Source of the DNA: an uncultured Gammaproteobacteria bacterium
GTDB taxonomy: Bacteria; Patescibacteriota; Microgenomatia; Woykebacterales; RBG-16-39-9b
Reading direction: 5' to 3'
Assembly (NCBI GenBank): GCA_964360785.1
Contig: CAYHXX010000002.1
Location: forward strand, 28,107 to 92,106
Length of the DNA: 64,000 nucleotides
Every line of letters begins with the position of its first letter. Position 1 is the stretch's first letter. A program made the position numbers and the translations under genes. Under the pieces are notes generated by a model. It searched no databases. It was not told where the DNA came from and saw nothing but the letters and a program-made list of their open reading frames with translations. Shown in pieces: positions 10,187-64,000 of this stretch.

Positions 10187-10299
10187 ACCGATGTAGCTCA
10201 GTGAAGAGAGCGCCATTTAAGTCTTGCTTTGTTCGGTGGACGGGACCGAGCAACAGAGAGCATTGGAGGTCGGAGGTTCGAATCCTCCCATCGGTACCA
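10187..10299 (+). tRNA. aberrant 113-nt tRNA-like gene with an insertion of about 37-40 nt between the D arm and T arm; isotype undetermined
   Basis: Canonical acceptor ACCGATG/CATCGGT, D arm GCTC-AGTGAAGA-GAGC, T arm GGAGG-TTCGAAT-CCTCC and CCA end, but 59 nt where an anticodon arm and variable loop would normally take about 22 nt. Confidence 0.5.
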
Positions 10300-10984: not shown

Positions 10985-11014
10985 AGAGCAGCTAGTAACT
11001 GCTCTTCTTTTTTT
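10985..11014 (+). terminator. intrinsic terminator (AGAGCAG-CTAGTAA-CTGCTCT followed by TCTTTTTTTT)
   Basis: Hairpin plus T-run, convergent with the dnaJ 3' end. Confidence 0.45.
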
Positions 11015-12113
11015 ACTCAAGTTCCTTCAGTGCTTCTTTTTGCTTGTTGGAAAGTTTAGTTGGGGTAATTATTTTTACACGGACAAACTGGTCTCCACGA
11101 GAGTTTCCGTGTTTGATACCTTTTTCCTTGAGACGAATATCTGTTCCGGTCTGCACACCTTCGGGAATTTTCAGTTTGACTGGCCCCTCAAGAGTTGGAA
11201 CTTCGATAGTAGCGCCCAAGGCTGCCTGAGCAAAATTAATTGGTTGTTCAATATAAACATGGTAGCCAGAGCGTTTGAAATCTTTGTGTGGAGCGACCCG
11301 GATACTTAAATAGAGATCTCCATAGCTACCACCTTTTTCTCCAGCTTGCCCTAGCCCTGGAAACCTGACCGTGTCAGAATCGTCAACTCCTGGTGGAATT
11401 TTTATTTCAGTTTCTTTGACTGTTCTTGCCCTGCCAGCGCCTTTGCATTTTTGGCATTTTTTCTCGACTATTTCTCCTTCACCCTCGCAAGTAGGACAGA
11501 CCCTCCGGGTCATGATTGGCCCAAGAATTGAGTTGGTAGTTTGCTGCACCGAACCACGACCATTGCAAGTCGAACAAGTTTTTTTGCTGGAATTTCTCTC
11601 AGCACCAGATCCAGAGCACTCACTACAAATTTCATAGCGGGGAATTTCGACTTTCTTGGTAGCACCAAAAGCTGCTTGCTCAAAGGGAATAGTGATCTCG
11701 TAGTGAAGGTCTTCCCCTGTCCTGGGACCAGTTTTTCTCCTTGTTGATCCAAAGGGAGAAGAGCCACCAAAGAATTCATTGAAGATATCAAATGGGTCAC
11801 GAAAACCAGAGTCAAAATCCACATTTACTCCACCTGCTCCGTAACCATAGCTATAGCCACCAGAGCCCCGGGGAGGAGCACCGCCACCCTGGAAAGCCGA
11901 GTGTCCAAACTGATCGTAGGCTGCTTTTTTCTGTGGGTCAGAAAGTACTTGGTAGGCTTCGTTGATTTCTTTAAAGCGTTCCGCCGCACCACTGGTTTTG
12001 TCCACATCCGGGTGGTGTTTGCGCGCCATTGTACGGTAAGCTTTTTTTATATCAGATTCAGTTGAAGTTTTGGAAATGCCCAACACTTCGTAATAGTCTC
12101 GTTTACTAGACAT
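11013..12113 (-). CDS. dnaJ: molecular chaperone DnaJ
   Basis: J domain with HPD, G/F region, four CxxCxGxG zinc-finger repeats, C-terminal domain. Confidence 0.9.
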   Translation of the reverse strand: MSSKRDYYEVLGISKTSTESDIKKAYRTMARKHHPDVDKTSGAAERFKEINEAYQVLSDPQKKAAYDQFGHSAFQGGGAPPRGSGGYSYGYGAGGVNVDFDSGFRDPFDIFNEFFGGSSPFGSTRRKTGPRTGEDLHYEITIPFEQAAFGATKKVEIPRYEICSECSGSGAERNSSKKTCSTCNGRGSVQQTTNSILGPIMTRRVCPTCEGEGEIVEKKCQKCKGAGRARTVKETEIKIPPGVDDSDTVRFPGLGQAGEKGGSYGDLYLSIRVAPHKDFKRSGYHVYIEQPINFAQAALGATIEVPTLEGPVKLKIPEGVQTGTDIRLKEKGIKHGNSRGDQFVRVKIITPTKLSNKQKEALKELE

Positions 12114-12163: not shown

Positions 12164-13060
12164 TTATTTATCCGAAGTACTGTTTGAAACTTCTGAAGGG
12201 TTGTTAGCAGGTTTTTCTTTATTTTTCTTTTTGCGATAGTAGACCAAAACTCCACCCAAAATAATTGCTAGAGCAGCGAGAAGTAGAATAACCACTGGAT
12301 TCTGGAATACTCCTTTTGTTTCTGTTGCAGAAGTTGTTGCCTTTGGTGTTGTTTTAGCACTTGCTGTAGCCGCGGTTGGAGTCTTAGTTTGGGTCACCGT
12401 CTCTGTAGCTGGCGCGTCGCTTTTGTTTTCAGTTGTTGAAGTGTTTGGGTTTACTGGTGCCGGTTCTGAGCTTTCTGTAGGCGCAGGGGCTGCTGCTGGC
12501 GGATCTGCTGCAGGTGGAGCTGGTGCTGCCGCATCATAGCCGTAGGTTAAAAAACCAAAGTTTTGTTTATTAGGATCTGTATTTTTTACTACTCCGTCAA
12601 CTACAGCGTTTCCTCGAGTGTAGTCTGGTGTTTCGTCTATGCGCCAATAAGCCGTCGAGGAAGTAGTCGTCAGGATGATTTGATATATAGCTTCAGCAGT
12701 AACCGAAAGGTCGGTACTGAAATCAAAAAGAACCCAGGAACCATTTTCACTACTTGGAGCAGTCGCATCCATAGAACCAATAGAATTAGCGGCTGCATCC
12801 TTTATAGCCATGTTAACAGTCGCTGAAGAACCATCCCCATTCAAATAGACATAAACCTTGTCCAATTTATTCTTGGTTGGTTTGAAAGTTTGTTTGACCG
12901 TATGACTATTTATACGCCAGTAACCCGCATCAGCGCTTGGAGGAAGGGGAACATATTCATATTGATCAAGAACCGATGCTGCCGCAAAAGTTTGTGCTGG
13001 AAATAGTAGGAGGAAGGCCACGACAACTAAAGCTGCGGAAATTTTGGACAGTATACGCAT
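12164..13060 (-). CDS. secreted/cell-surface protein (signal peptide, beta-rich domain, Pro/Ala/Thr-rich linker, C-terminal TM anchor with KKK tail)
   Basis: N-terminal signal peptide ending AQTFA. APAPPAADPPAAAPAPTE linker. C-terminal hydrophobic helix then RKKKNKEK. Confidence 0.5.
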   Translation of the reverse strand: MRILSKISAALVVVAFLLLFPAQTFAAASVLDQYEYVPLPPSADAGYWRINSHTVKQTFKPTKNKLDKVYVYLNGDGSSATVNMAIKDAAANSIGSMDATAPSSENGSWVLFDFSTDLSVTAEAIYQIILTTTSSTAYWRIDETPDYTRGNAVVDGVVKNTDPNKQNFGFLTYGYDAAAPAPPAADPPAAAPAPTESSEPAPVNPNTSTTENKSDAPATETVTQTKTPTAATASAKTTPKATTSATETKGVFQNPVVILLLAALAIILGGVLVYYRKKKNKEKPANNPSEVSNSTSDK

Positions 13061-13097: not shown

Positions 13098-13634
13098 CTA
13101 TTTATTTAGCCAGAGTTTGGCCTTGGTAAAAGCAGCGATTGACTGGGCGTCAATTATTTCACCTTTTCGTATCAGCTCGTTAACCTCTGCAAAACTGACC
13201 TTTTTCATGTTGCTGATTCCCTCTGCTGCTTCTTTGTTTTCACTTGTCTGACGCAATTTTTGCGCTATAAACACGTATTCTGTTTCACAAGCAATTCCGT
13301 TCATTGGTTCTAGCTTTCCAATTTCTGTCCAGCTTTCCGCCTCGAAACCAGTTTCTTCCTTCAGCTCTCTTTTTGCAGCTGCTAGTATATCTTGACCATC
13401 GCTACCTCCACCAGGGAATTCCCAAGAAAAGGTTTTGGTGGGGTAGCGCCACTGGCTGACCAAATAAACATCTTGTTCGTCATCTATGGGAATTATAAAA
13501 ACAGAGTTGGGTGTTTCAACAAAGGAATATTGGCCGTGACTTCCATCTGGTCGGAGCACCTCATCCTCACGGATTTTCATCCAAGGTGTCTCGTAAACAA
13601 TTTTTGAACTTTTAGTTTTCCAAGGATTTTCCAT
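13098..13634 (-). CDS. NUDIX hydrolase
   Basis: Nudix box GGGSDGQDILAAAKRELKEETG. Confidence 0.7.
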   Translation of the reverse strand: MENPWKTKSSKIVYETPWMKIREDEVLRPDGSHGQYSFVETPNSVFIIPIDDEQDVYLVSQWRYPTKTFSWEFPGGGSDGQDILAAAKRELKEETGFEAESWTEIGKLEPMNGIACETEYVFIAQKLRQTSENKEAAEGISNMKKVSFAEVNELIRKGEIIDAQSIAAFTKAKLWLNK

Positions 13635-14215
13635 CAGATCAAATTAATACCTTCTTTACCTAAATCTAACCTTAGCTTTCCCACACTCGTGTAAATAAAG
13701 CTTTTAATCCCTAAACTTTCTGCAGCTAAGGTGTTCTTCTCCCGATCGTCAATAAAAATTATTTCCTCTTTATGCAAATTTAATCTTTTTAATACTTCCT
13801 CAAAGAATTCTTTTTCTGGTTTTATAAAGCCAATTTCTGAAGAAATAACAACTTCATCAAAATACTTATACAAATTATTATCTTCCAACATTTTCCTTAA
13901 AATTCCCGCTCTAGCATTAGACATCAACCCAATTTTGTATCTAGTCTTTAGCTGAGAAACCAGTTCTAAAAGCTCTTTATCAAGACCAAATTCTTTATGG
14001 ATCATGGGTAAAATAGTTTCGGGAGCGAATCCGGTCTTTTCAGCAATTCTTTGTACAAATTCTGCTTCCTCCATCCTACCTCTGTCTAATAGATTAGTTA
14101 GATTCTGAAAAAAATCTCTTTGATTTTCCAAGTCTTTATACGTCTTACCCAACCAACTCCACAAAAGATCTGGACAAATCACTCCAAAGAAATCAAAAAC
14201 AATTGCTTTAGTCAT
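13634..14215 (-). CDS. HAD-superfamily hydrolase
   Basis: N-terminal FDFFGV (DxDGT-like motif I) and C-terminal IDDREKN (motif IV-like). Confidence 0.6.
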   Translation of the reverse strand: MTKAIVFDFFGVICPDLLWSWLGKTYKDLENQRDFFQNLTNLLDRGRMEEAEFVQRIAEKTGFAPETILPMIHKEFGLDKELLELVSQLKTRYKIGLMSNARAGILRKMLEDNNLYKYFDEVVISSEIGFIKPEKEFFEEVLKRLNLHKEEIIFIDDREKNTLAAESLGIKSFIYTSVGKLRLDLGKEGINLI

Positions 14216-14230
14216 CTTGTAAATAGTACC

Positions 14231-14268
14231 AGAAAAAGAATGTGCCCCGACGAGTTGTTCATCGGGGC
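14231..14268 (-). terminator. intrinsic terminator of the GC-rich membrane-protein gene (GCCCCGA...TCGGGGC stem plus T-run on the minus strand)
   Basis: 7-bp GC stem at 14244-14268 followed on the minus strand by TTCTTTTTCT. Confidence 0.5.
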
Positions 14269-14290
14269 GTGGTGGGCTGCGGAACTTGAG

Positions 14291-14638
14291 TCAGGTCTGC
14301 TGCGGACGGAACATGCGGTACGTGCTGACCGGGAAACCGATGATGTGAACAGCCGACGCGATAGCTGCCATCACGGTCCAGGTCAGGAGAAGAACGTATA
14401 CACCGTCGGCATTGGCCTTATCGTTCCAACCCGAGATACCCACGTACAGGATGTACGGAGTGGCCGGAAGTACGACCAGTGCGGTGAGGAAGCCGACCAG
14501 CTTCATCACCCAATAACCCCACCGGTGGTAGGTGTCCTGGACATACTGTCCAAAGACGTATGCGCCAGCCATCGGTGTCGACAGAACGATCGACGCGGAG
14601 ACGATGATCCCCAGGTGGTCATTGATGAAAGCGAACAT
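14291..14638 (-). CDS. small integral membrane protein (115 aa, 3-4 TM) encoded by conspicuously G+C-rich DNA
   Basis: ORF with GC-rich third codon positions, flanked by AT-rich DNA. SD GGGAGGG lies 8 nt upstream. Own terminator. Confidence 0.5.
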   Translation of the reverse strand: MFAFINDHLGIIVSASIVLSTPMAGAYVFGQYVQDTYHRWGYWVMKLVGFLTALVVLPATPYILYVGISGWNDKANADGVYVLLLTWTVMAAIASAVHIIGFPVSTYRMFRPQQT

Positions 14639-14718
14639 GGAACAATCCCTCCCTGAATAGTCCCTTCCGAGACCGATTTCTTGACTTATAGTATTTTACC
14701 ACGAGGAAGGAAATCTTT

Positions 14719-15078
14719 TTAAATGGTCTTAAAAACCTTGTCTGTAGGTTCAGAGGGGATTTTAATAGTTTGGCAAAGCGTTGGTTCTTCCAAAACTTTT
14801 TTAACGGCAGTACTTACTCCCGGTGGAATAACAATGTAGTCGCCTTGGTTTAATTCGTAGTCTTCACCATCAATCTCCCAAATGGCTTTCCCACTGAAAA
14901 TAAACTCTATCTTTGTAGCTTTTTTCTGAAAATGTGGTTTTGAGGTAAAGCTTTTTTCCAGATTCTTAATTTTAATTTCCACTCTATCGTCTTTTAATAA
15001 ACCTTCAGGCATGAAAGACCCATAAAGCCAGCCCTCGCGCTCCTGTTCTTGAAAAAAGTTACCTTTGAAAAATTTCAT
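14719..15078 (-). CDS. cupin-domain protein
   Basis: 119 aa with a small beta-barrel-like sequence (GDYIVIPPG). Confidence 0.45.
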   Translation of the reverse strand: MKFFKGNFFQEQEREGWLYGSFMPEGLLKDDRVEIKIKNLEKSFTSKPHFQKKATKIEFIFSGKAIWEIDGEDYELNQGDYIVIPPGVSTAVKKVLEEPTLCQTIKIPSEPTDKVFKTI

Positions 15079-15081
15079 TTT

Positions 15082-15645
15082 TTATCCTATCGCACCCAAG
15101 ACTTTTTCGAAGATCTTTTTGTGGCCCGCTGCATTTGGATGATCTCCATCATTATAAAAATCATCTCTTGTTAAAACTCCAAAACAGTCGGCAAATTTGA
15201 GGTTTCTTTCTTGGGAAATTTCTTTAATCACTTCATTGTATTTCTTAATTTCTTCGTTTCTATAACCAAACTTGTTACTCTCCTCATCAATATTGTTAAG
15301 TTCAACTACTACAATATCCTTAGTAATTTTTTCTGCTTTATCCAAAAGCTCTTTATAAGAACTTTTAAACTCGTCTATTGGTGTTCCACCTGGGTTGTCT
15401 ATGTTTGTACTGTCATTAATTCCAATGGAAAAAATAATCTTATCTGGTCGGCGAGCGTCAACCTCTAGATCAAATCTTTTCAAAACGTCAGACACTCTGT
15501 CTCCGGAAACTCCGCAGTTATACACATAAGTTTCAGGATCATTATCAAAGAAATGCACTTTGAGCCGCTCGACCCAGCCTCCGGATTCTAGATCAAAAGC
15601 TCCCCAAGTTATACTATCCCCAAAAACACATATTCTATTGCTCAT
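15082..15645 (-). CDS. SGNH/GDSL-family hydrolase
   Basis: ICVFGDSITWG (GDS block I) and DGDHPN (DxxH block V). Confidence 0.7.
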   Translation of the reverse strand: MSNRICVFGDSITWGAFDLESGGWVERLKVHFFDNDPETYVYNCGVSGDRVSDVLKRFDLEVDARRPDKIIFSIGINDSTNIDNPGGTPIDEFKSSYKELLDKAEKITKDIVVVELNNIDEESNKFGYRNEEIKKYNEVIKEISQERNLKFADCFGVLTRDDFYNDGDHPNAAGHKKIFEKVLGAIG

Positions 15646-16097
15646 TCCTTTTTTTCTTCGTCAACTACTTCACCTTCAAGTTTTGTATCTATTCCTATTC
15701 TCAAAAACCCATTCTTCTTGTAATCTGCATCAAAACTAAAAATTTCTTGCTTATTTCTTTCCTTCAGTATTGCGATATTAACCATATCGGTAAATCTGGA
15801 ATTTTTTGAAGCTTGATTCTTGAAAACTTCAAATGCTTGATTTCTCAATTTTGTATCTACCTCAACTATTTCCACCTGGCTATTCAAAATCTCGTTAGCA
15901 AAATTTACTGCAGCAGCATGACCAACGTTTTGGCTGATAACTGTGATTGCTTCACCAAAGGCTGGATCCGATGTAACCGTCCCACAACCAACAGCGCTAG
16001 CTACACTACTAACTGCGACAGCCAGTTTGTGATTTGAGTCTTTGGAGTCTACTAGTGCTACAAAGGCATCAGCGTCGACGAAGAGTTCTTTTTCCAT
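15642..16097 (-). CDS. vapC: PIN-domain toxin (VapC-like). The start is probably at the internal Met (MEKELFVDAD), not the upstream ATG of the ORF-track entry.
   Basis: LFVDADAFVAL N-terminal PIN motif and C-terminal SFDADY. The last 10 residues ([10 protein letters not shown]) are encoded by a duplicated dnaK tail. Confidence 0.6.
   Translation of the reverse strand: MEKELFVDADAFVALVDSKDSNHKLAVAVSSVASAVGCGTVTSDPAFGEAITVISQNVGHAAAVNFANEILNSQVEIVEVDTKLRNQAFEVFKNQASKNSRFTDMVNIAILKERNKQEIFSFDADYKKNGFLRIGIDTKLEGEVVDEEKKE
15650..15678. repeat. direct repeat copy 1 (TTTTCTTCGTCAACTACTTCACCTTCAA); duplicate of the dnaK 3' end
   Basis: 28/28 identical to 16431-16459, plus flanking GTTTTG similarity. 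Confidence 0.75.
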
Positions 16098-16338
16098 AGT
16101 TCGGGGACTTACTACCATATAAGTAGGAGTTAATATTCGTGGAAAGGTTACCGGGACCAGCTGTGGCTTTTGCAGCGATCTTGAGCAAAACATCAGCCGG
16201 AGATTCGCTTGTCTTTTTTCTTAAACCAGATTTTAAAAGCTCCCTGATTATTTCAGCCTGTGGTTTATCTTGTTTCTTGGAAAGAAGGTTAATCTCCCGA
16301 TCCAGAGTCTCGGTAAGATATATTTGTTTTCTTTTCAT
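16069..16338 (-). CDS. ribbon-helix-helix (CopG/VapB-like) antitoxin
   Basis: KQIYLTETLDREINLLSKKQDKPQAEIIRELL has an RHH beta-strand/helix pattern. Sits immediately upstream of, and overlaps, the PIN gene. Confidence 0.55.
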   Translation of the reverse strand: MKRKQIYLTETLDREINLLSKKQDKPQAEIIRELLKSGLRKKTSESPADVLLKIAAKATAGPGNLSTNINSYLYGSKSPNYGKRTLRRR

Positions 16339-16424: not shown

Positions 16425-18371
16425 TTACTTCTTTTCTTCGTCAACTACTTCACCTTCAACTGTTTTGTTGTCTTCTTTTTCCTTCGACGCGCCTTCGGCT
16501 TGCTCAGGACTACCGCCTTCACCGTCTGTTGGTGGGATTTCTTCTTGGACGCCGGCGCCTTCGGGGTTGGTTCCGGGTGCGTTTTCATACATGGCTGATC
16601 CGATTTTTTGCAGCGCAGCCCCGAGTTCGTCAGCGGCTTTCTTAATATCGTCCGCATTGTCCTTTGTTATCGCCTCTTTAGCAGTAGCGACTTTTTCCTC
16701 AACTTCTTTTTTGACGTCCTCGGCTACTTTGTCACCAGCATCTTTGAGAGATTTTTCGGCGGTATAGACCAGAGAATCAGCGATGTTGCGGGCTTCAATC
16801 AATTCTTTTTTCTTGGCATCTTCCTCGGCGTGTTTTTCTGCTTCCGCGGCCATGTTGGCAGCTTCTTCCTTGGAAAGACCTGTTGAGCCGGTAATGGTAA
16901 TTTTTTGTTCTTTGCCAGAGGCCTTATCCTTGGCGTGAACGTTGAGAATGCCATTAGCATCAATATCAAAGGTTACTTCGATCTGGGGGACGCCACGCGG
17001 TGCTGGTGGTACTCCATCGAGTATGAACCGACCAAGCGATTTGTTGTCAGTTGCCATTGGTCGCTCTCCTTGTAGAACATGGACCTCGACACTAGTCTGA
17101 TTATCCGCAGCCGTTGAGAAAGTTTCTGTCTTGGCAGTTGGAATAGTTGTATTGCGCGCGATCAATACAGTTGAGACTCCGCCAAGGGTTTCAACTCCAA
17201 GGGAGAGTGGGGTAACGTCCAAAAGAACGACATCTTTAACCTCCCCGGTAAGGACTGCCCCTTGAATCCCAGCGCCAATGGCAACAACCTCGTCTGGATT
17301 GATCCCTTTGTGGGGATCTTTGCCGAAAAACTTTTTGACTGCTTCTTGCACTGCTGGCATTCGGGTCATACCGCCAACCAAAACCACCTCATCTACCTTG
17401 GCCGCGTCAATTCCAGCGTCTTTAATAGCGGCTTTACAGGCATCAAAAGTTTTATCAATCAAACTTTGGACCAAACTTTCGAGTTTGGCTCGAGAAAGTT
17501 TTACCAGCAAATGTTTTGGTCCGGAAGCGTCAGCGGTGATGAAGGGAATGTTAACCTCAGTTTCCAGAGAACTGGAAAGCTCGATCTTAGCTTTTTCCGC
17601 ACTATCGCGCAGTCGCTGCATTGCTTGCTTATCGGCTGAGAGATCAACACTATTTTCTTTTTTAAATTCTTCTACCAGAAAATCAATAATTTTTTGGTCA
17701 AAATCATCTCCTCCCAGGTGGGTGTCGCCGGAAGTAGATTTGACTTCAAAAACACCTTCGCCCAGTTCCAAAATGGAAACGTCAAAAGTTCCACCACCAA
17801 GGTCATAGACCGCAATCGTGTGGCCTTGTGATTTTTCCAGACCATAAGCCAGAGCTGCTGCAGTTGGTTCATTAATAATTCTTTTGACATCAAGACCAGC
17901 GATCTCACCGGCCTGTTTTGTTGCTTGGCGCTGGGCATCGTCAAAGTAAGCCGGGACGGTAATCACGGCATCGGTAACTTTCTCACCCAAATAACTTTCG
18001 GCATCAGCTTTGATTTTTTGGAGAATTTGCGCGGAAATTTCTTGGGGTGTGAATTCCTTACCCTCAACTTCAACCACTGCCATATCATTTTTGCCACTCT
18101 TTACAGTGTAGGGAAGCCACTTCACATCGCGTTGCACAGTCTCGTCTTTAAACTTATGTCCCATCAATCTTTTTACTGAAAAAATTGTCGTTTTTGGGTT
18201 AACCACTGCTTGGCGCTTGGCCACCCGCCCAACCACTCTTTTGATCGGATCGACAACTGAAGGGATAATATTTTCACCCTCAGCCGAGTGGATTACTTTT
18301 GGCTGGCCCCCCTCAATGATAGCTACGGCGCTGTTTGTTGTTCCTAGATCGATACCAATAATTTTTGACAT
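16425..18371 (-). CDS. dnaK: molecular chaperone DnaK (Hsp70)
   Basis: [18 protein letters not shown], 648 aa. Confidence 0.95.
16431..16459. repeat. direct repeat copy 2 (native dnaK 3' end)
   Basis: See copy 1. Together the repeats bracket the RHH-PIN cassette, about 780 bp. Confidence 0.75.
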
Positions 18372-18389: not shown

Positions 18390-18641
18390 TTAATCAACTT
18401 CAAGAACGTAATTTTTAACAATCACCCACACTAGACTAAAGAGTACCCACCAAATCAAGACATCAAAGGCTACTGAAAAATAATTTATATGATAACCAAC
18501 TGTTCCATCGACATTAAAATTATCCCGAGCAAAGGTAAACGGAAAACCATGTTTGGACTCGTCTCTAATATAGAAAAAACTAATTGCCGTGATAATCACA
18601 GCCAGTAGAAGAGTCCACAAAAGTGAAAGTGCCTTAATCAT
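18390..18641 (-). CDS. small membrane protein (83 aa, 2 TM) between grpE and dnaK
   Basis: Hydrophobic helices. Overlaps the grpE stop by 4 nt. Confidence 0.4.
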   Translation of the reverse strand: MIKALSLLWTLLLAVIITAISFFYIRDESKHGFPFTFARDNFNVDGTVGYHINYFSVAFDVLIWWVLFSLVWVIVKNYVLEVD

Positions 18642-36432: not shown

Positions 36433-38766
36433 TTACTGCTTGATGACGACGATGGTCTCACCGCAGTTGGCGCAGGCCTTGGCAGTGAGAGCGTTCTTGT
36501 ACCCGCATCCGGCCGTGCAGTAGATGAAGTCCCTTGCAGGCTGAGCCGGGGCGGGGGATGTCGTCGGTACCGGAGCCGGCGTTGGTGCTGGCTCTGGCGC
36601 GGGCGCGGGGGCCGGAGTCGGCCTTCCCGTTACCCTCACCGACTTCGTCTTTGGCCCTGGGGCGGGTGCGCTAGCGGCGGCGGCCTTCCTTGCTGCTTCT
36701 ACCACCTCGGGGGGAAGCTCAGCAGCAACGGAACCATCTTCAGGCTCCACCACTGCCTCTTCCTTCGGCAGCTCGCAGCCGCACTCGTCGCAGCGCTTGC
36801 GACCAGGCTGCGCTGGTGTCTTGCAGTTCGGGCAGACCCTTTCCTGTGGCTCGACGATGGCGGCGGGTACGGGGACCGTTGCCAAAGTGCCACACTCGTC
36901 GCAGCGCTTGCGCTCCGGCGCGATCGGCCCGCCGTACTGCACACAGTCCGGGTTCGGGCAGACCTTACCGTCGCCATTGGCCCCAATGGCCTTCATCTGC
37001 TCGGCGACACCAGCCAGGGTGGCCACGTCCCCTAAGGTGGCTGGCTGGACCTCGTCCTGCTGCGGCCCAAAACCGAGATCCCACGACCCTTCGGACGCGA
37101 TCGCATCGATCTCCTTACTCCGACTCACGGTCTGCTCGACATTCGAGGCTTCCGCCACGAGCGTGCGGGCTCCGTTGATCAGAGTTCGTGATTCGACGAG
37201 CGGACTCCTTTGGGCATGAGCTACGCTCGGGTTGTCGAAGTTCTGCCGGTTGGCCACCAGGTTGTCGATCTTGCTCAAGACTGAGCGTCCGGGCGGTGTT
37301 TCGGCGAAGGGTCCGACCGCGTGCTGAGCGTCAGCAATGAACTTGTCGATCTGCTCAAGATTGGCGTCGATCTCCTCGACGGCCAACGAAGCCTCGTACA
37401 GCTCCTCTGCCCGACCAACCAGCTTGAAGGACCCGCCACGCTTCTCACGGGGTGCTGACCCCTTCAAACGCCTTAGCTCGACTTCAAGCTCGCTTGCCTC
37501 AGCAAGGAACCGCTGTGCGTAGCCGTTGTCCGGAAATGCGCCGACCGCCTCCTTGGCCGCACCGACAAAGCACGTCGTCGCCTCAAAGTCAACCTCGGCT
37601 CGGACATCGCGAGCGGCACTGACACTGAGCGTGTAGTTCCGCGCCGGTAGGTGTTGTTGGCGGATCTCGCTGAGTTTGTCCTGAGCCTTCTTGCCGACTT
37701 CACTGGGGTCCCATTTGGGGTCAGCGGCCCGCGCCTTCTCGACGACCTCCTTGATGTGCTCGACGACGCTGAGGATCTGCTGATTAGCGTTGTTCGTCGC
37801 ACAGCTGTCACACCCTTCGACCTGGTTTTCGCGGTCGATGTAGTAGGGCGGGCGGTCTTTCGGGATCGGTTTCAAGCACGGCTCGCCGCTGGGGAGTGTG
37901 TTCTGACACTCTTTCGTTTCGGTCGTCTGCACGGTCACTTCTGCTTCCCTTTCCTCGTGCGTTCGCACGACTACTGACTTGACGCTTGGACTGTGATGTA
38001 CTGCCATTTCTGGCTCCTCTTCTGTTGTCGCAACTGCGGTTGCTCCTCCTTTCGCAACCAAATCAGTCCAGTACTTACTTGCGATTCTGGTTATCTCGTC
38101 CGTCGAGAACTCACTGTTGCGTGTTTCCCAACCGTAAACAGAAGACTCAACCTCTGCCCCGTCCGGGAAATAAACGATCCTGCGGCACTCGCGTGCTATC
38201 TTGATCGTTCTAATCTGCTTTGGCCACGTGATACCCTCCACAGCGGGCAGTTCTGGCTTCTTACCAACTGTGTTTTGGAGAATAGTGATGTTTCGGTTCA
38301 TGAGCGCGACCAGAAACTCAATATCTCTCACGATGTTTCGAAGTTGGCGCTCCACCTCCCTGTTTGGGCCAGAATGTTTGATCTCAACTAGACCTACAAC
38401 CCAAGCGGTTTTGGCTTCGATACTGATGAGAATCCCGTCTGGGTTGTGAAATGCGAGTTTCGGATAGTCAGAGAAAAACGGGGAGCGTGTTCTCAGAAAT
38501 GCCAGAAAGTAATCAGCCACTACCTGCTCTTCAGCAGACATTTGCCTGCCTTCATAATCTGGCGCACTGAGTACAAGCTCTTGAAGAACTCTTCCTCGCT
38601 TATCTGAGATGGTTGGTTCCTGTGAATTATATGTAATTGTTCGGGTGCCTAGGTCATGAAGGTTCGCTGTTTGTAGCGCTCTTTTATCCGGTGTCAGATA
38701 GGGTCGAACCGGGGTGATATGCGCTACGACCTCAGAAACCCAGTGATCGACATCGCGAATACTCAT
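36433..38766 (-). CDS. G+C-rich foreign-looking protein of about 778 aa: N-terminal PD-(D/E)xK nuclease-like domain, long Ala/Glu-rich central region, Pro/Ala linker, three C-terminal zinc ribbons. Start taken at MSIRDVDHW.
   Basis: HNPDGILISIEAKTAWVVGLVEIKHS (PD...ExK). CPNPDCVQYGGPIAPERKRCDECG, CPNCKTPAQPGRKRCDECG, CTAGCGYKNALTAKACANCG. SD GGAAGGAGG lies 8 nt upstream of the ATG at 38764-38766. The ORF-track start 38874 is upstream in AT-rich DNA and unlikely. Confidence 0.55.
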   Translation of the reverse strand: MSIRDVDHWVSEVVAHITPVRPYLTPDKRALQTANLHDLGTRTITYNSQEPTISDKRGRVLQELVLSAPDYEGRQMSAEEQVVADYFLAFLRTRSPFFSDYPKLAFHNPDGILISIEAKTAWVVGLVEIKHSGPNREVERQLRNIVRDIEFLVALMNRNITILQNTVGKKPELPAVEGITWPKQIRTIKIARECRRIVYFPDGAEVESSVYGWETRNSEFSTDEITRIASKYWTDLVAKGGATAVATTEEEPEMAVHHSPSVKSVVVRTHEEREAEVTVQTTETKECQNTLPSGEPCLKPIPKDRPPYYIDRENQVEGCDSCATNNANQQILSVVEHIKEVVEKARAADPKWDPSEVGKKAQDKLSEIRQQHLPARNYTLSVSAARDVRAEVDFEATTCFVGAAKEAVGAFPDNGYAQRFLAEASELEVELRRLKGSAPREKRGGSFKLVGRAEELYEASLAVEEIDANLEQIDKFIADAQHAVGPFAETPPGRSVLSKIDNLVANRQNFDNPSVAHAQRSPLVESRTLINGARTLVAEASNVEQTVSRSKEIDAIASEGSWDLGFGPQQDEVQPATLGDVATLAGVAEQMKAIGANGDGKVCPNPDCVQYGGPIAPERKRCDECGTLATVPVPAAIVEPQERVCPNCKTPAQPGRKRCDECGCELPKEEAVVEPEDGSVAAELPPEVVEAARKAAAASAPAPGPKTKSVRVTGRPTPAPAPAPEPAPTPAPVPTTSPAPAQPARDFIYCTAGCGYKNALTAKACANCGETIVVIKQ

Positions 38767-38797
38767 TCGGATGCCTCCTTCCTCACTTATGAGGCCT

Positions 38798-38825
38798 ATT
38801 ATACACAAAAAGTTGTAAAAGTCAA
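38798..38825 (-). promoter_or_regulatory. sigma70-like promoter of the large GC-rich gene (TTGACT-16-TATAAT on the minus strand)
   Basis: Minus-strand -35 TTGACT at 38820-38825 and -10 TATAAT at 38798-38803. AT-rich, unlike the ORF. Confidence 0.5.
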
Positions 38826-38857
38826 TCCTATAGCAGTTGTCGTGTGATTCTGGGCAT

Positions 38858-38879
38858 AAAAAAACTCCATCCAATGGAG
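38858..38879 (-). terminator. intrinsic terminator downstream of the small zinc-ribbon gene (CTCCAT-TGG-ATGGAG plus TTTTTTT on the minus strand)
   Basis: Hairpin followed by a 7-T run on the minus strand. A second upstream hairpin GGGAGACAG...CTGTCTCCC at 38903-38941. Confidence 0.5.
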
Positions 38880-39039
38880 TTAATTACTTTAAAGATATAG
38901 GTGGGAGACAGTTAGCGCGAGGCTAAACCGATCTGTCTCCCCTGGCGTCCTTCCTGTCTCGGTAAACAGGCACATGAGCTTACGTCATGACAAATCTCCT
39001 GGCCACAGTCTTGTGGCTAACCGCTCACCGTGATGGAAG

Positions 39040-39443
39040 CTACTTGCGCTTCCCCCCGTGAGCCATCTCCTGGTCGTGGCTGCGGCGTTCGGATTGCCGG
39101 GCACGCCATCGCTCCTTCTTGGCCATCTTCCGCACCTTGCGGTTGGCGGCCTCGATGCGGTCGCTGCTGGACTGCTCCGACAGTTCCACGATGAGCTCCT
39201 GGGCCCTGACGAACTTGCCGTTCGTCTTGGCTGTGACCGCCGCGAAGAAGAGTTTCTTCGCCACCGATCCGAGCTCACGCGGGTTGAACCGCCTGAGACT
39301 GCTCTCGACCTGAGAACAGAGGCTCCGGCAACGGCGGCACGTGCTCACGTTGCGGTCCTCGGCCTCGAGGTCTACAACGAACCCCGTATCGCACGAGCGG
39401 CACAGAGTTTCCACTTCAGCCTTGCCGAAAATCGTAACCATTT
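39040..39443 (-). CDS. G+C-rich small zinc-ribbon protein with basic C-terminal tail (about 133 aa; start at MVTIFGKAEV)
   Basis: CRSCD...CRRCRSLC zinc-ribbon-like spacing. Lys/Arg-rich C-terminus (RKVRKMAKKERWRARQSERR). GC-rich third codon positions. Confidence 0.45.
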
Positions 39444-39644
39444 CGTGTCCCCTTTCACAGGAACAACTCACACTTTAGGACGGGGTGAGTAACCGCTTTG
39501 GCTTGAAGCCAAAAAGCCATTCCAAAGGAAACCTTTGGAACAGCTTTATAGCCTCAACTTACCTTCACAAATTTGGCTCTTAAGTTTCGGGGAAGTTTGT
39601 ATTCACCTCCTTTTGATAGATATCCCGTAATTTCTTACGAGCCA

Positions 39645-39709
39645 AGTTTGAAAAGATAAAGGTTTAGGGCGGGTGGGAGGATACTTTGCATTGCTTTCTC
39701 CTCCCACCC
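39645..39709 (-). terminator. intrinsic terminator (11-bp stem GGGTGGGAGGA/TCCTCCCACCC) downstream of the 50-aa ORF on the minus strand
   Basis: Long GC stem at 39671-39709 followed on the minus strand by a T-rich tract. Confidence 0.4.
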
Positions 39710-39745
39710 ATGTGCCCCGCATGTTGTCGTCGCCGGCGTACCTGG

Positions 39746-39898
39746 TTAGCGCTTCTGAGCGGCCAGGGCCCGACAGGTCTGGGTGATCGCGTCGCCGTTG
39801 CCGTACACCCGTGTGGCAACACCACCCGGGAGAACGATCATGCGCGACGGGCCGGTGTTGAAGCTCTTGTATGATACCTTCTGACCAGAACGTGACAT
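39746..39898 (-). CDS. G+C-rich small ORF (about 50 aa, MSRSGQKVSYKSFNTGPSRMIVLPGGVATRVYGNGDAITQTCRALAAQKR); below the ORF-track length cutoff
   Basis: Consensus SD: AGGAGG lies about 8 nt upstream of the ATG. Followed by a terminator. No family recognised. Confidence 0.3.
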   Translation of the reverse strand: MSRSGQKVSYKSFNTGPSRMIVLPGGVATRVYGNGDAITQTCRALAAQKR

Positions 39899-40088
39899 GT
39901 TGGCGGGACCTCCTGTAAAAGCTGAGTCACCTCATTTTGGTGTCTCAAACCTCACTACTAGATAGGGAGATTTCAGATACCAAGACCTCTCTCAAAAAGC
40001 CTGATGCACCACTCAATCTTGATAAAAAGTATAGCACACTTTAGTCCTTTTGTCAAGTACTATGGGTTGTTCTCTGGGTTAGTGGTGA

Positions 40089-63700: not shown

Positions 63701-64000
63701 CTAGCGCAGCGGCGAAATGCCGTACTGGCCGAGGAACTCGTTCGCCACGACGACGGGCAGAGACCTATTGACCACTGCCTCCAACGCAAGTCTCGTCACT
63801 GTGGCCTCGAACTCCGCGCGGGCCTCGAACTCCTTGCGGAAGAACCGTCGGAGGTACCGCTTCCACCATGCCGGTACCTGAACGACGCCGACATACTCGA
63901 TGTACCTTTGTAGGCGGTCGTAAACCTGCTGGTAGCGGGTCAGCAAGACCCACTTCCAACCCTCGACCTCCCAGTCGATGTCGGCGCTTGGGTGGCGTGG
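63701..64000 (-). CDS. G+C-rich hypothetical protein, 3' part; the gene may start beyond the window end
   Basis: Minus-strand ORF ending at 63701 (…EFLGQYGISPLR) with GC-rich third positions. Reading frame open to 64000. Confidence 0.4.
   Translation of the reverse strand, partial: PRHPSADIDWEVEGWKWVLLTRYQQVYDRLQRYIEYVGVVQVPAWWKRYLRRFFRKEFEARAEFEATVTRLALEAVVNRSLPVVVANEFLGQYGISPLR

Follow-up and report, generated by a model that had tools for sequence, protein, structure and literature searches.

The stretch analysed here (the window, 64,000 nucleotides of contig CAYHXX010000002.1 in assembly GCA_964360785.1) contains dnaJ (11013-12113) and dnaK (16425-18371), which bound a variable interval of accessory genes. 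Within this interval, on the minus strand, lies a short open reading frame (ORF) of 115 amino acids, called here the TM gene for the three transmembrane (TM) helices predicted in its product, and together with its own signals it forms a compact GC-rich cassette. Its companions in the window include a HAD hydrolase, a cupin, a GDSL hydrolase, an RHH-PIN pair and a NUDIX gene; annotation agrees with an earlier note on this DNA, made from the sequence alone, in placing the locus between dnaK and dnaJ with a HAD hydrolase and a cupin as neighbours. That note took the cassette for a foreign insertion from a recurrent source. Our analyses lead to a different reading, which we regard as probable: the TM gene is a real, old, lineage-restricted membrane-protein gene with conserved GC-rich codon usage, whose interior has been shuffled between lineages, and not a recent insertion.

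A GC-rich gene with its own signals

The ORF begins with ATG and has a G+C content of 0.569, distributed as 0.552, 0.414 and 0.741 over first, second and third codon positions (GC1, GC2 and GC3). The 50 other likely genes of the window have a GC3 of 0.376 ± 0.047 with a maximum of 0.470, which puts the ORF at z = 7.7 and bears out the earlier claim that its third positions are GC-rich, unlike those of its neighbours. Codon usage departs from background just as clearly: on a codon index that takes the window's own usage as reference, the ORF scores 0.632 against 0.754 ± 0.016, 7.5 standard deviations below background, and the three GC-rich ORFs of the window have its three lowest values. G and C are each elevated at the third positions of the TM gene, where A has dropped to 6%, with isoleucine encoded by ATC (9 of 9 codons), proline by CCG (5 of 5), glutamine by CAG (4 of 4) and leucine mostly by CTG (6 of 10). 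The change in composition is sharp. In 100-nt windows the G+C content rises from 0.33-0.37 to 0.57-0.59 over ~14235 to ~14650 and then falls back to 0.38, a step that coincides with the transcription unit of the gene.

The ORF is a genuine protein gene under purifying selection, because the ratio of nonsynonymous to synonymous substitution rates (dN/dS) is 0.116 relative to its closest homologue (protein P0002 of the related locus L005, 84% amino acid identity). The 61 nucleotide differences between these two coding sequences (CDSs) fall 13, 9 and 39 by codon position. On the opposite strand, a 178-aa ORF (14120-14656, plus strand) is spurious, an open frame of the sort that GC-rich DNA yields: the equivalent frame of L005 contains two stops, and substitutions track the codon phase of the minus strand.

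Both cassette junctions are reproduced, at 99.98-100% identity to the window, in four assemblies, two of them from Hainich groundwater (ERZ1292618 and ERZ1292616) and two of them Logan run assemblies (SRR32696699 and ERR3654040); these are independent as assemblies, not necessarily as populations, and some runs may share a site. Because the four agree across the junctions, an assembly chimera is excluded, as the earlier note had supposed in arguing that the segment was not a single assembly error.

The unit is self-contained (Table 1). The earlier note had credited the gene with its own Shine-Dalgarno sequence and terminator; both are present, and a promoter-like site was found too. Outside the limits of the conserved unit, homologous loci carry different flanking genes. 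The TGnTAAAAT promoter element is kept in the window, L005, L011 and L007, and L010 has TAAAAT without the TG. The leader hairpin takes the form GAUCUC-GAGU-GAGAUC in L007, where one change is compensatory on both sides, several are one-sided and none disrupts the hairpin, and it may serve as a stabiliser at the 5′ end of the transcript; the fold z-scores of the leaders relative to shuffled sequences were not significant. A search for a riboswitch or thermometer in the leader gave no Rfam match at E ≤ 1 in 13500-15500, and a thermometer that sequesters the Shine-Dalgarno sequence was rejected, the leader folding no better than shuffles and matching nothing in Rfam. The terminator hairpin has 10 bp, 7 of them G-C pairs, and its stem sequence is kept in L005, L011, L007 and L010. 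Compared with dinucleotide shuffles, the transcript as a whole is more stably folded (z = -3.5), mostly owing to the leader and terminator hairpins.

Table 1. Features of the GC-rich cassette in window coordinates (pS and pN, proportions of synonymous and nonsynonymous sites that differ)
Feature	Position	Strand	Basis or remark
Conserved cassette unit, promoter to terminator	14222-14702	-	blastn: L005 2681-3159 aligns with window 14702-14222, 84%
Extended -10 promoter element TGgTAAAAT	14693-14701	-	consensus scan
Weak -35-like element TTAAAA	14717-14722	-	
5′ leader hairpin GGUCUC-GGAA-GGGACU	14659-14674	-	predicted in 4 of 4 folded leaders
Shine-Dalgarno sequence GGGAGGG	14647-14653	-	8 nt from ATG; AGGAGGG or AAAGGAG in homologues
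CDS, 115 aa, three predicted TM helices	14291-14638	-	GC3 0.741
Codons 1-19, conserved 5′ end of mosaic (codons 2-19 scored)	14582-14638	-	pS 0.15 vs L011
Codons 20-100, divergent interior	14339-14581	-	pS 0.693, pN 0.383 vs L011
Codons 101-115 and stop, conserved 3′ end of mosaic, GFPVSTYRMFRPQQ	14291-14338	-	pS 0.0 vs L011 (0 synonymous changes in 9.8 sites)
Intrinsic terminator	14232-14268	-	stem GCCCCGA-N11-TCGGGGC at 14244-14268, plus T-run

Synteny, composition and divergence of the family

A profile search defines a family of seven proteins. The word-indexed search of 5.8 billion clusters returned the 115-aa protein itself and one homologue. Four more relatives, of 109-118 aa, came from exhaustive HMMER searching of 1.84 billion representatives, which also gave two weak partial matches in long proteins. 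Among the GTDB species representatives the sole match was a Candidatus Woykebacteria metagenome-assembled genome (MAG; JBBDPM010000006.1, locus L006), at ~51-52% identity. Since its dnaK and that of the window are 80% identical, a Woykebacteria-like bacterium is the most likely source of the window too. No relatives were present in IMG/VR, phage genomes or plasmids. JGI metagenome contigs scanned with two short peptide patterns, which divergent members would escape, gave nothing, and a JGI scan with a 20-nt leader motif recovered only L015, an unrelated AT-rich repeat contig. Over all of these searches, neither a donor lineage nor a nearer homologue in distant taxa emerged beyond the seven syntenic members, so that the matches of the protein are confined to the Woykebacteria-like clade and point to no foreign donor.

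All seven members lie in the dnaK-dnaJ interval or adjoin its genes, and all belong to Woykebacteria-like genomes, which have ~42% GC and a genomic GC3 of ~0.37. The gene order is dnaK, a 61-aa antisense ORF, TM gene and NUDIX in L005; dnaK, then further on NUDIX, TM gene, HAD and dnaJ in L006; dnaK, an 88-aa ORF, TM gene and surface protein in L007/L008; TM gene and NUDIX in L009; an acyl carrier protein (ACP) gene, TM gene and dnaJ in L010; and the end of dnaK, a 90-aa ORF, TM gene, surface protein, dnaJ and nusA in L011. The accessory genes vary, with PIN, GDSL and cupin found in the window only and HAD in the window and L006 only, and the TM gene is the constant element. Each of the six related lineages recovered has it, inside the interval or next to it, so that it is not patchy among them, a count that is ascertained by the gene itself, through which the loci were found. 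Among homologues the identity of the TM protein falls to ~30%. As judged from these sequences, the TM gene belongs to a very small, undescribed family that is confined to Woykebacteria-like bacteria of the candidate phyla radiation (CPR) and is a long-standing resident of a variable dnaK-dnaJ interval. The earlier note had set its foreign origin against the possibility of a conserved core protein of the lineage; conservation in the lineage is largely borne out by the six syntenic lineages that were recovered through the gene.

The unusual composition is shared across the family. GC3 of the TM gene is 0.817 in L006 (neighbours 0.27-0.43), 0.724 in L011 (0.26-0.37), 0.714 in L007 (0.36-0.44) and 0.69 in L005 (0.32-0.40), so that with the window it stays at 0.69-0.82 in five of the seven members; the other two have 0.518 (L010, neighbours 0.35-0.46) and 0.429 (L009, neighbours ~0.38). 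The lineages are far apart, pS between them being 0.67-0.83 in dnaK and dnaJ, at or near saturation. For the TM gene, drawing synonymous codons independently from each gene's own usage gives an expected pS of 0.66-0.71; the observed values are 0.46-0.66, with five of ten pairs indistinguishable from independent codon choice, and amount to 68-94% of the independence expectation in four pairs that involve the window. At the level of these comparisons, G+C-richness at synonymous sites is a trait that the gene passes on by descent and not the trace of a recent insertion.

Divergence is distributed very unevenly along the cassette. Between the window and L011, nucleotide identity is 96.9% in the leader and 97.1% in the terminator, as against 65.5% in the CDS, and the break falls inside the reading frame, where a divergent interior with a sliding nucleotide identity of 0.33-0.67 is framed by two nearly unchanged ends (Table 1). 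Relative to L007, the corresponding values are 72% in the leader (90% over its first 30 aligned nucleotides), 85% in the terminator and 55% in the CDS. The conserved ends are also the most GC3-rich part of the cassette, at 0.82-0.85. Because the same ends are less conserved between the window and L005 (pS 0.29 and 0.36), pure nucleotide-level constraint on them cannot explain the pattern seen with L011, and it would be simpler to suppose that the conserved ends mediated a recent exchange or that the interior was replaced. The cassette thus appears as a recombination mosaic, an observation that is new to this analysis, and its interior suggests fast or diversifying evolution.

The same history is suggested by the genes around the cassette. 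Identity of dnaK to that of the window is 92.6% in L007, 92.5% in L005 and 79.6% in L006, and the TM proteins are incongruent with this order, with 33% identity in L007 and ~51-52% in L006. Between the window and L005, the segment made up of the cassette and NUDIX (13098-14702) has a synonymous divergence (dS) of ~0.72, as against saturation in dnaK and grpE next to it, and between the window and L011 the surface-protein gene (12164-13060) has a pS of 0.49 as compared with 0.78 for dnaJ. Since these values lie below those of the bounding genes, the history of the dnaK-dnaJ interval should be younger than theirs or one of exchange.

A separate observation concerns the gene at the other side of the terminator. 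The HAD hydrolase gene (13634-14215) has the lowest G+C content of the window, 0.326. It is missing from L005, where the cassette terminator and the TGGTACTAT promoter that follows it directly adjoin NUDIX, and in the distant L006 it stands after the cassette. On this comparison HAD represents a precise gain or loss at the 3′ boundary of the cassette.

Origin and probable upkeep of the GC-rich codons

Because five of the seven lineages retain a high GC3 although their synonymous divergence is close to saturation, we infer, with moderate confidence, that a fixation bias holds it high. By a rough two-state estimate, even a gene that started at a GC3 of 0.95 would by neutral decay have come down to about 0.5 or less. 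When synonymous changes between the window and L005 were polarised with three outgroups, changes from G or C to A or T (S>W) and the reverse (W>S) were balanced, 7 to 7, as opposed to the ratio of ~4.8:1 that neutral decay would produce (binomial P = 0.005). Transitions dominate among the synonymous sites that differ, so the GC content of these sites is uninformative on maintenance.

Such a bias might come from selection, favouring either disfavoured codons or a stable mRNA, or from the import of GC-rich alleles from an unsampled reservoir, although no reservoir was found in our searches. Locus-wide GC-biased gene conversion is unlikely, because the NUDIX, HAD and surface-protein genes in the interval are AT-rich. 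A conserved RNA structure within the CDS was rejected as the cause: minimum free energy z-scores relative to synonymous-codon shuffles in the seven homologues (-2.8, -0.2, -1.6, -0.4, -0.4, -1.6 and -1.5) are weak and inconsistent, with only the window below -2. The mRNA of the gene is ~1.6 times more strongly folded per nucleotide than those of its neighbours, from composition alone.

Pieced together from these features, the life of the cassette might run as follows. The TG-extended -10 promoter would drive a transcript with a ~50-nt leader and a small 5′ hairpin, a strong Shine-Dalgarno sequence would start translation of an ORF made almost entirely of G/C-ending codons that are disfavoured in the genome, and the Rho-independent terminator would end the transcript as a monocistronic one. 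A fixation bias, acting either as selection on a property of the mRNA or its translation or as the arrival of GC-rich alleles by recombination, would hold GC3 high, and alleles of the cassette would recombine through the conserved leader and terminator and through the conserved codons at either end of the reading frame (~19 at its start and ~15 at its close).

Several observations weigh against this account. In the deeper polarised comparisons S>W changes are in excess (6:0, 10:1 and 6:4), although the counts are tiny and parsimony is biased toward G/C ancestors. Two members, L009 and L010 (0.43 and 0.52), are not strongly GC-rich, and passive amelioration fits them equally well. The coding sequence has no strong or consistent conserved RNA structure (z from -0.2 to -2.8), and NUDIX, HAD and the surface protein share the recombination history of the interval and yet are AT-rich. 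Finally, the family numbers just seven sequences, most of which come from short contigs (1-4.5 kb).

The strongest competitor, which we consider unlikely while taking it seriously, is that the ancestor of the clade received the gene once, in an ancient transfer from a GC-rich donor, and that only slow passive amelioration followed, with the mosaic as the product of ordinary homologous recombination. It would account for the graded GC3 over the family (0.82, 0.74, 0.72, 0.71, 0.69, 0.52 and 0.43), for codon usage typical of a high-GC genome (CTG, CCG, ATC, CAG) and for the S>W excess in the deeper comparisons. It is at odds with the synonymous sites of the GC-rich members and of dnaK and dnaJ, which are at or near saturation, with the two-state estimate of a GC3 near 0.5 or below, and with the balanced changes between the window and L005. 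Amelioration models expect third positions to ameliorate fastest, but in the TM gene GC1 and GC2 are near native while GC3 is extreme. No donor family was found among the 1.84 × 10^9 representatives or in the profile search.

A bolder version of active upkeep would make the TM gene a hypervariable locus whose GC3 is actively maintained, either as a structured, rare-codon mRNA that tunes expression at a heat-shock locus or by import from a GC-rich gene pool. We treat this as speculative and doubtful. The same GC-rich pool might then be the source of the orphan ORFs at 36.4-39.9 kb and 63.7-64 kb of the window. If either version were true, genes of foreign composition would form a distinct pool that circulates and persists in CPR genomes rich in A+T, at variance with the standard view that acquired genes ameliorate.

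Recurrent import of interior alleles through the conserved ends, from an unsampled GC-rich reservoir such as a mobile element, a sister lineage or a host, refines the idea of the earlier note and is an improbable explanation; the other GC-rich orphan ORFs of the genome might then come from that reservoir as well. Near-identical ends around a saturated, GC-rich interior are what it would produce, and the incongruence of the TM tree with dnaK and the presence of three GC-rich, orphan-bearing segments in the window are in keeping with it. Its difficulty is that no copy was found outside the dnaK-dnaJ context (1.84 × 10^9 representatives, 5.8 × 10^9 clusters, IMG/VR, JGI metagenomes, phages and plasmids), that there is no integrase, attC site or shared terminal motif, and that the conserved ends are themselves the most GC3-rich part.

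Arrival of a foreign gene cassette in this genome by one recent insertion, the literal sense of the earlier note, would readily explain a sharp GC step at the limits of one transcription unit, atypical codon usage and neighbouring accessory genes that differ among relatives, but it is very improbable given orthologous cassettes in the same interval of six other lineages, with identities down to ~30%. Neither direct nor inverted repeats of at least 14 nt occur in 14150-14800, no mobility gene is present (the neighbours are HAD, cupin and GDSL) and the 64-kb window holds no second copy of the cassette. The interpretation of the earlier note is thus supported in part, for the compositional anomaly, the self-contained unit and the correct assembly, and not for a recent insertion from a recurrent foreign source: shared descent at one locus is the more probable reading, and no donor and no phage, plasmid or integron signature was found. 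That the segment is not a protein gene at all, but a structured RNA, the gene of the 178-aa antisense ORF or an assembly chimera, can be dismissed despite the fold of the whole transcript and the long antisense frame, in view of the dN/dS of 0.12, the minus-strand codon phase, the antisense stops in L005, the lack of any Rfam match, a CDS fold that is by itself unremarkable in most homologues, and the agreement of the four assemblies.

Known systems offer partial parallels to the probable reading, that of an old resident gene with a shuffled interior. Genomic islets and ORFan accessory genes at hot spots resemble the cassette in their sharp break in GC content and codon usage, their restriction to a narrow clade, their location in an interval as variable as that between dnaK and dnaJ, and their own promoter and terminator; they differ in that the composition of the 115-aa gene is common to orthologues across saturated divergence and no donor is detectable. 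Loci of mosaic allelic replacement under diversifying selection, such as pherotype, immunity and surface-protein loci, share the near-identical ends, divergent interior and incongruent trees; here, unlike there, no partner toxin, peptide or phage is known, and the comparison rests on seven sequences with saturated pS. An integron gene cassette is likewise a single short ORF in a compact exchangeable unit, but the TM cassette has its own promoter and terminator and its exchange was apparently homologous, not site-specific. No attC-like imperfect inverted repeat was found at the cassette apart from the terminator stem, and no integrase lies nearby. The target of a diversity-generating retroelement was rejected, since the window contains neither a template repeat nor a duplicate of any cassette segment.

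Recent horizontal transfer is commonly diagnosed from an atypical G+C content. An orphan gene that keeps a foreign-looking composition across near-saturated orthologues would instead imply that composition can be upheld gene by gene, by selection or recombination, in a reduced CPR genome. If this is true, it calls for caution in the dating of horizontal transfers by composition, and the TM gene would be a small system in which the action of selection or conversion at synonymous sites can be put to the test. The mosaic also suggests gene flow between lineages of uncultured Woykebacteria at a dnaK-dnaJ hot spot, and the TM proteins add a new family of small membrane proteins.

The protein, the other GC-rich segments and neighbouring genes

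The earlier description of the product as a 115-aa membrane protein agrees with prediction. Hydropathy shows three hydrophobic segments (residues ~9-30, 43-68 and 79-102), and an AlphaFold2 model built from the seven family sequences has three long helices, with a mean predicted local distance difference test score (pLDDT) of 85.1 and a predicted template-modelling score (pTM) of 0.75; this model replaced an earlier one from two sequences, which was poor (pLDDT 52). By the positive-inside rule, the charges in loop 1 (R39/K46), loop 2 (D73/D78) and the tail (R108/R111) would place the N terminus outside and the C terminus inside. The protein has no meaningful match in Pfam, NCBIfam, PHROGs or PADLOC, a PDB sequence profile search returned nothing, and a Foldseek search of the model against PDB and BFVD gave no match with E < 0.1 or TM-score > 0.5.

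Class I holins and the immunity proteins of pore-forming colicins are small proteins with three TM segments, and the likeness to them is one of resemblance only. It extends to a length of ~105-115 aa, three TM segments as predicted by hydropathy and AlphaFold2, an N-out/C-in topology as suggested by charge distribution only, the short basic C-terminal tail and the stand-alone promoter. On the other side, there is no match in sequence, profile or fold, no endolysin or toxin gene alongside and neither a phage nor a plasmid setting, and the gene is conserved at a chromosomal housekeeping locus; when a holin was specifically considered, no significant PHROG or Pfam match, no viral fold match and no adjacent endolysin were found, the genes nearby being of housekeeping or accessory metabolic kinds. 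With low confidence, we suggest a membrane protein with a variable external or intramembrane partner, similar in role to a receptor or an immunity protein.

Two other segments of the window are GC-rich. The larger (36433-39900) reaches a G+C content of 0.73. Its main product, a protein of 778/813 aa, has a tract rich in PAPAP and several zinc-ribbon motifs of the CxxC type and is a singleton in the 5.8-billion-cluster database; the segment also holds a 143-aa ORF with a GC3 of 0.80, and an independent Hainich contig has it between the same flanks (FemAB and a UvrD/PD-(D/E)XK helicase). The other (63703-64000, G+C 0.54-0.66) lies downstream of leuS and contains a partial minus-strand ORF that runs off the end of the window and has no Pfam or PHROG match. 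When the three GC-rich segments, including that of the TM gene, were compared with each other, they proved to have no terminal motif or repeat in common and no further copy of the cassette's leader or terminator, and their third-position composition is broadly alike, with high G and C, in a way that is not diagnostic. The earlier note had counted at least three GC-rich insertions and argued from them for a recurrent source; three GC-rich, orphan-bearing segments do exist, and with no motif or repeat in common they may, but need not, have a shared source.

Just upstream of the TM gene, some relatives carry a small, divergently transcribed gene (L010 123-380, L011 130-402, L007 2077-2343). That of L010 is a PP-binding acyl carrier protein (PF00550), and those of L011 and L007 are ACP-like without the canonical DSL serine motif. 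This neighbour was rejected as a clue to function, being found in some lineages only and not in the window.

A 28-bp stretch of the dnaK 3′ end occurs as an exact direct repeat (15652-15679 and 16432-16459) that brackets the RHH (16069-16338) and PIN (15642-16193) pair, and the end of the PIN ORF is a copy of the DnaK C terminus, which suggests that insertion or recombination brought an RHH-PIN toxin-antitoxin module to the end of dnaK and caused a duplication there. Elsewhere in the window, a 110-nt Rfam tRNA match of 51 bits (10187-10296), located right after a tRNA-Trp/Pro/Ala cluster and not called by ARAGORN, may represent an intron-containing or otherwise unusual tRNA. Between grpE and dnaK, an 83-aa hydrophobic ORF (18390-18641) overlaps the grpE stop codon and has two hydrophobic stretches by eye; it has no Pfam match, is kept at the same position in L005 (71% identity) and L006, and has the look of a small membrane protein encoded within the heat-shock operon.

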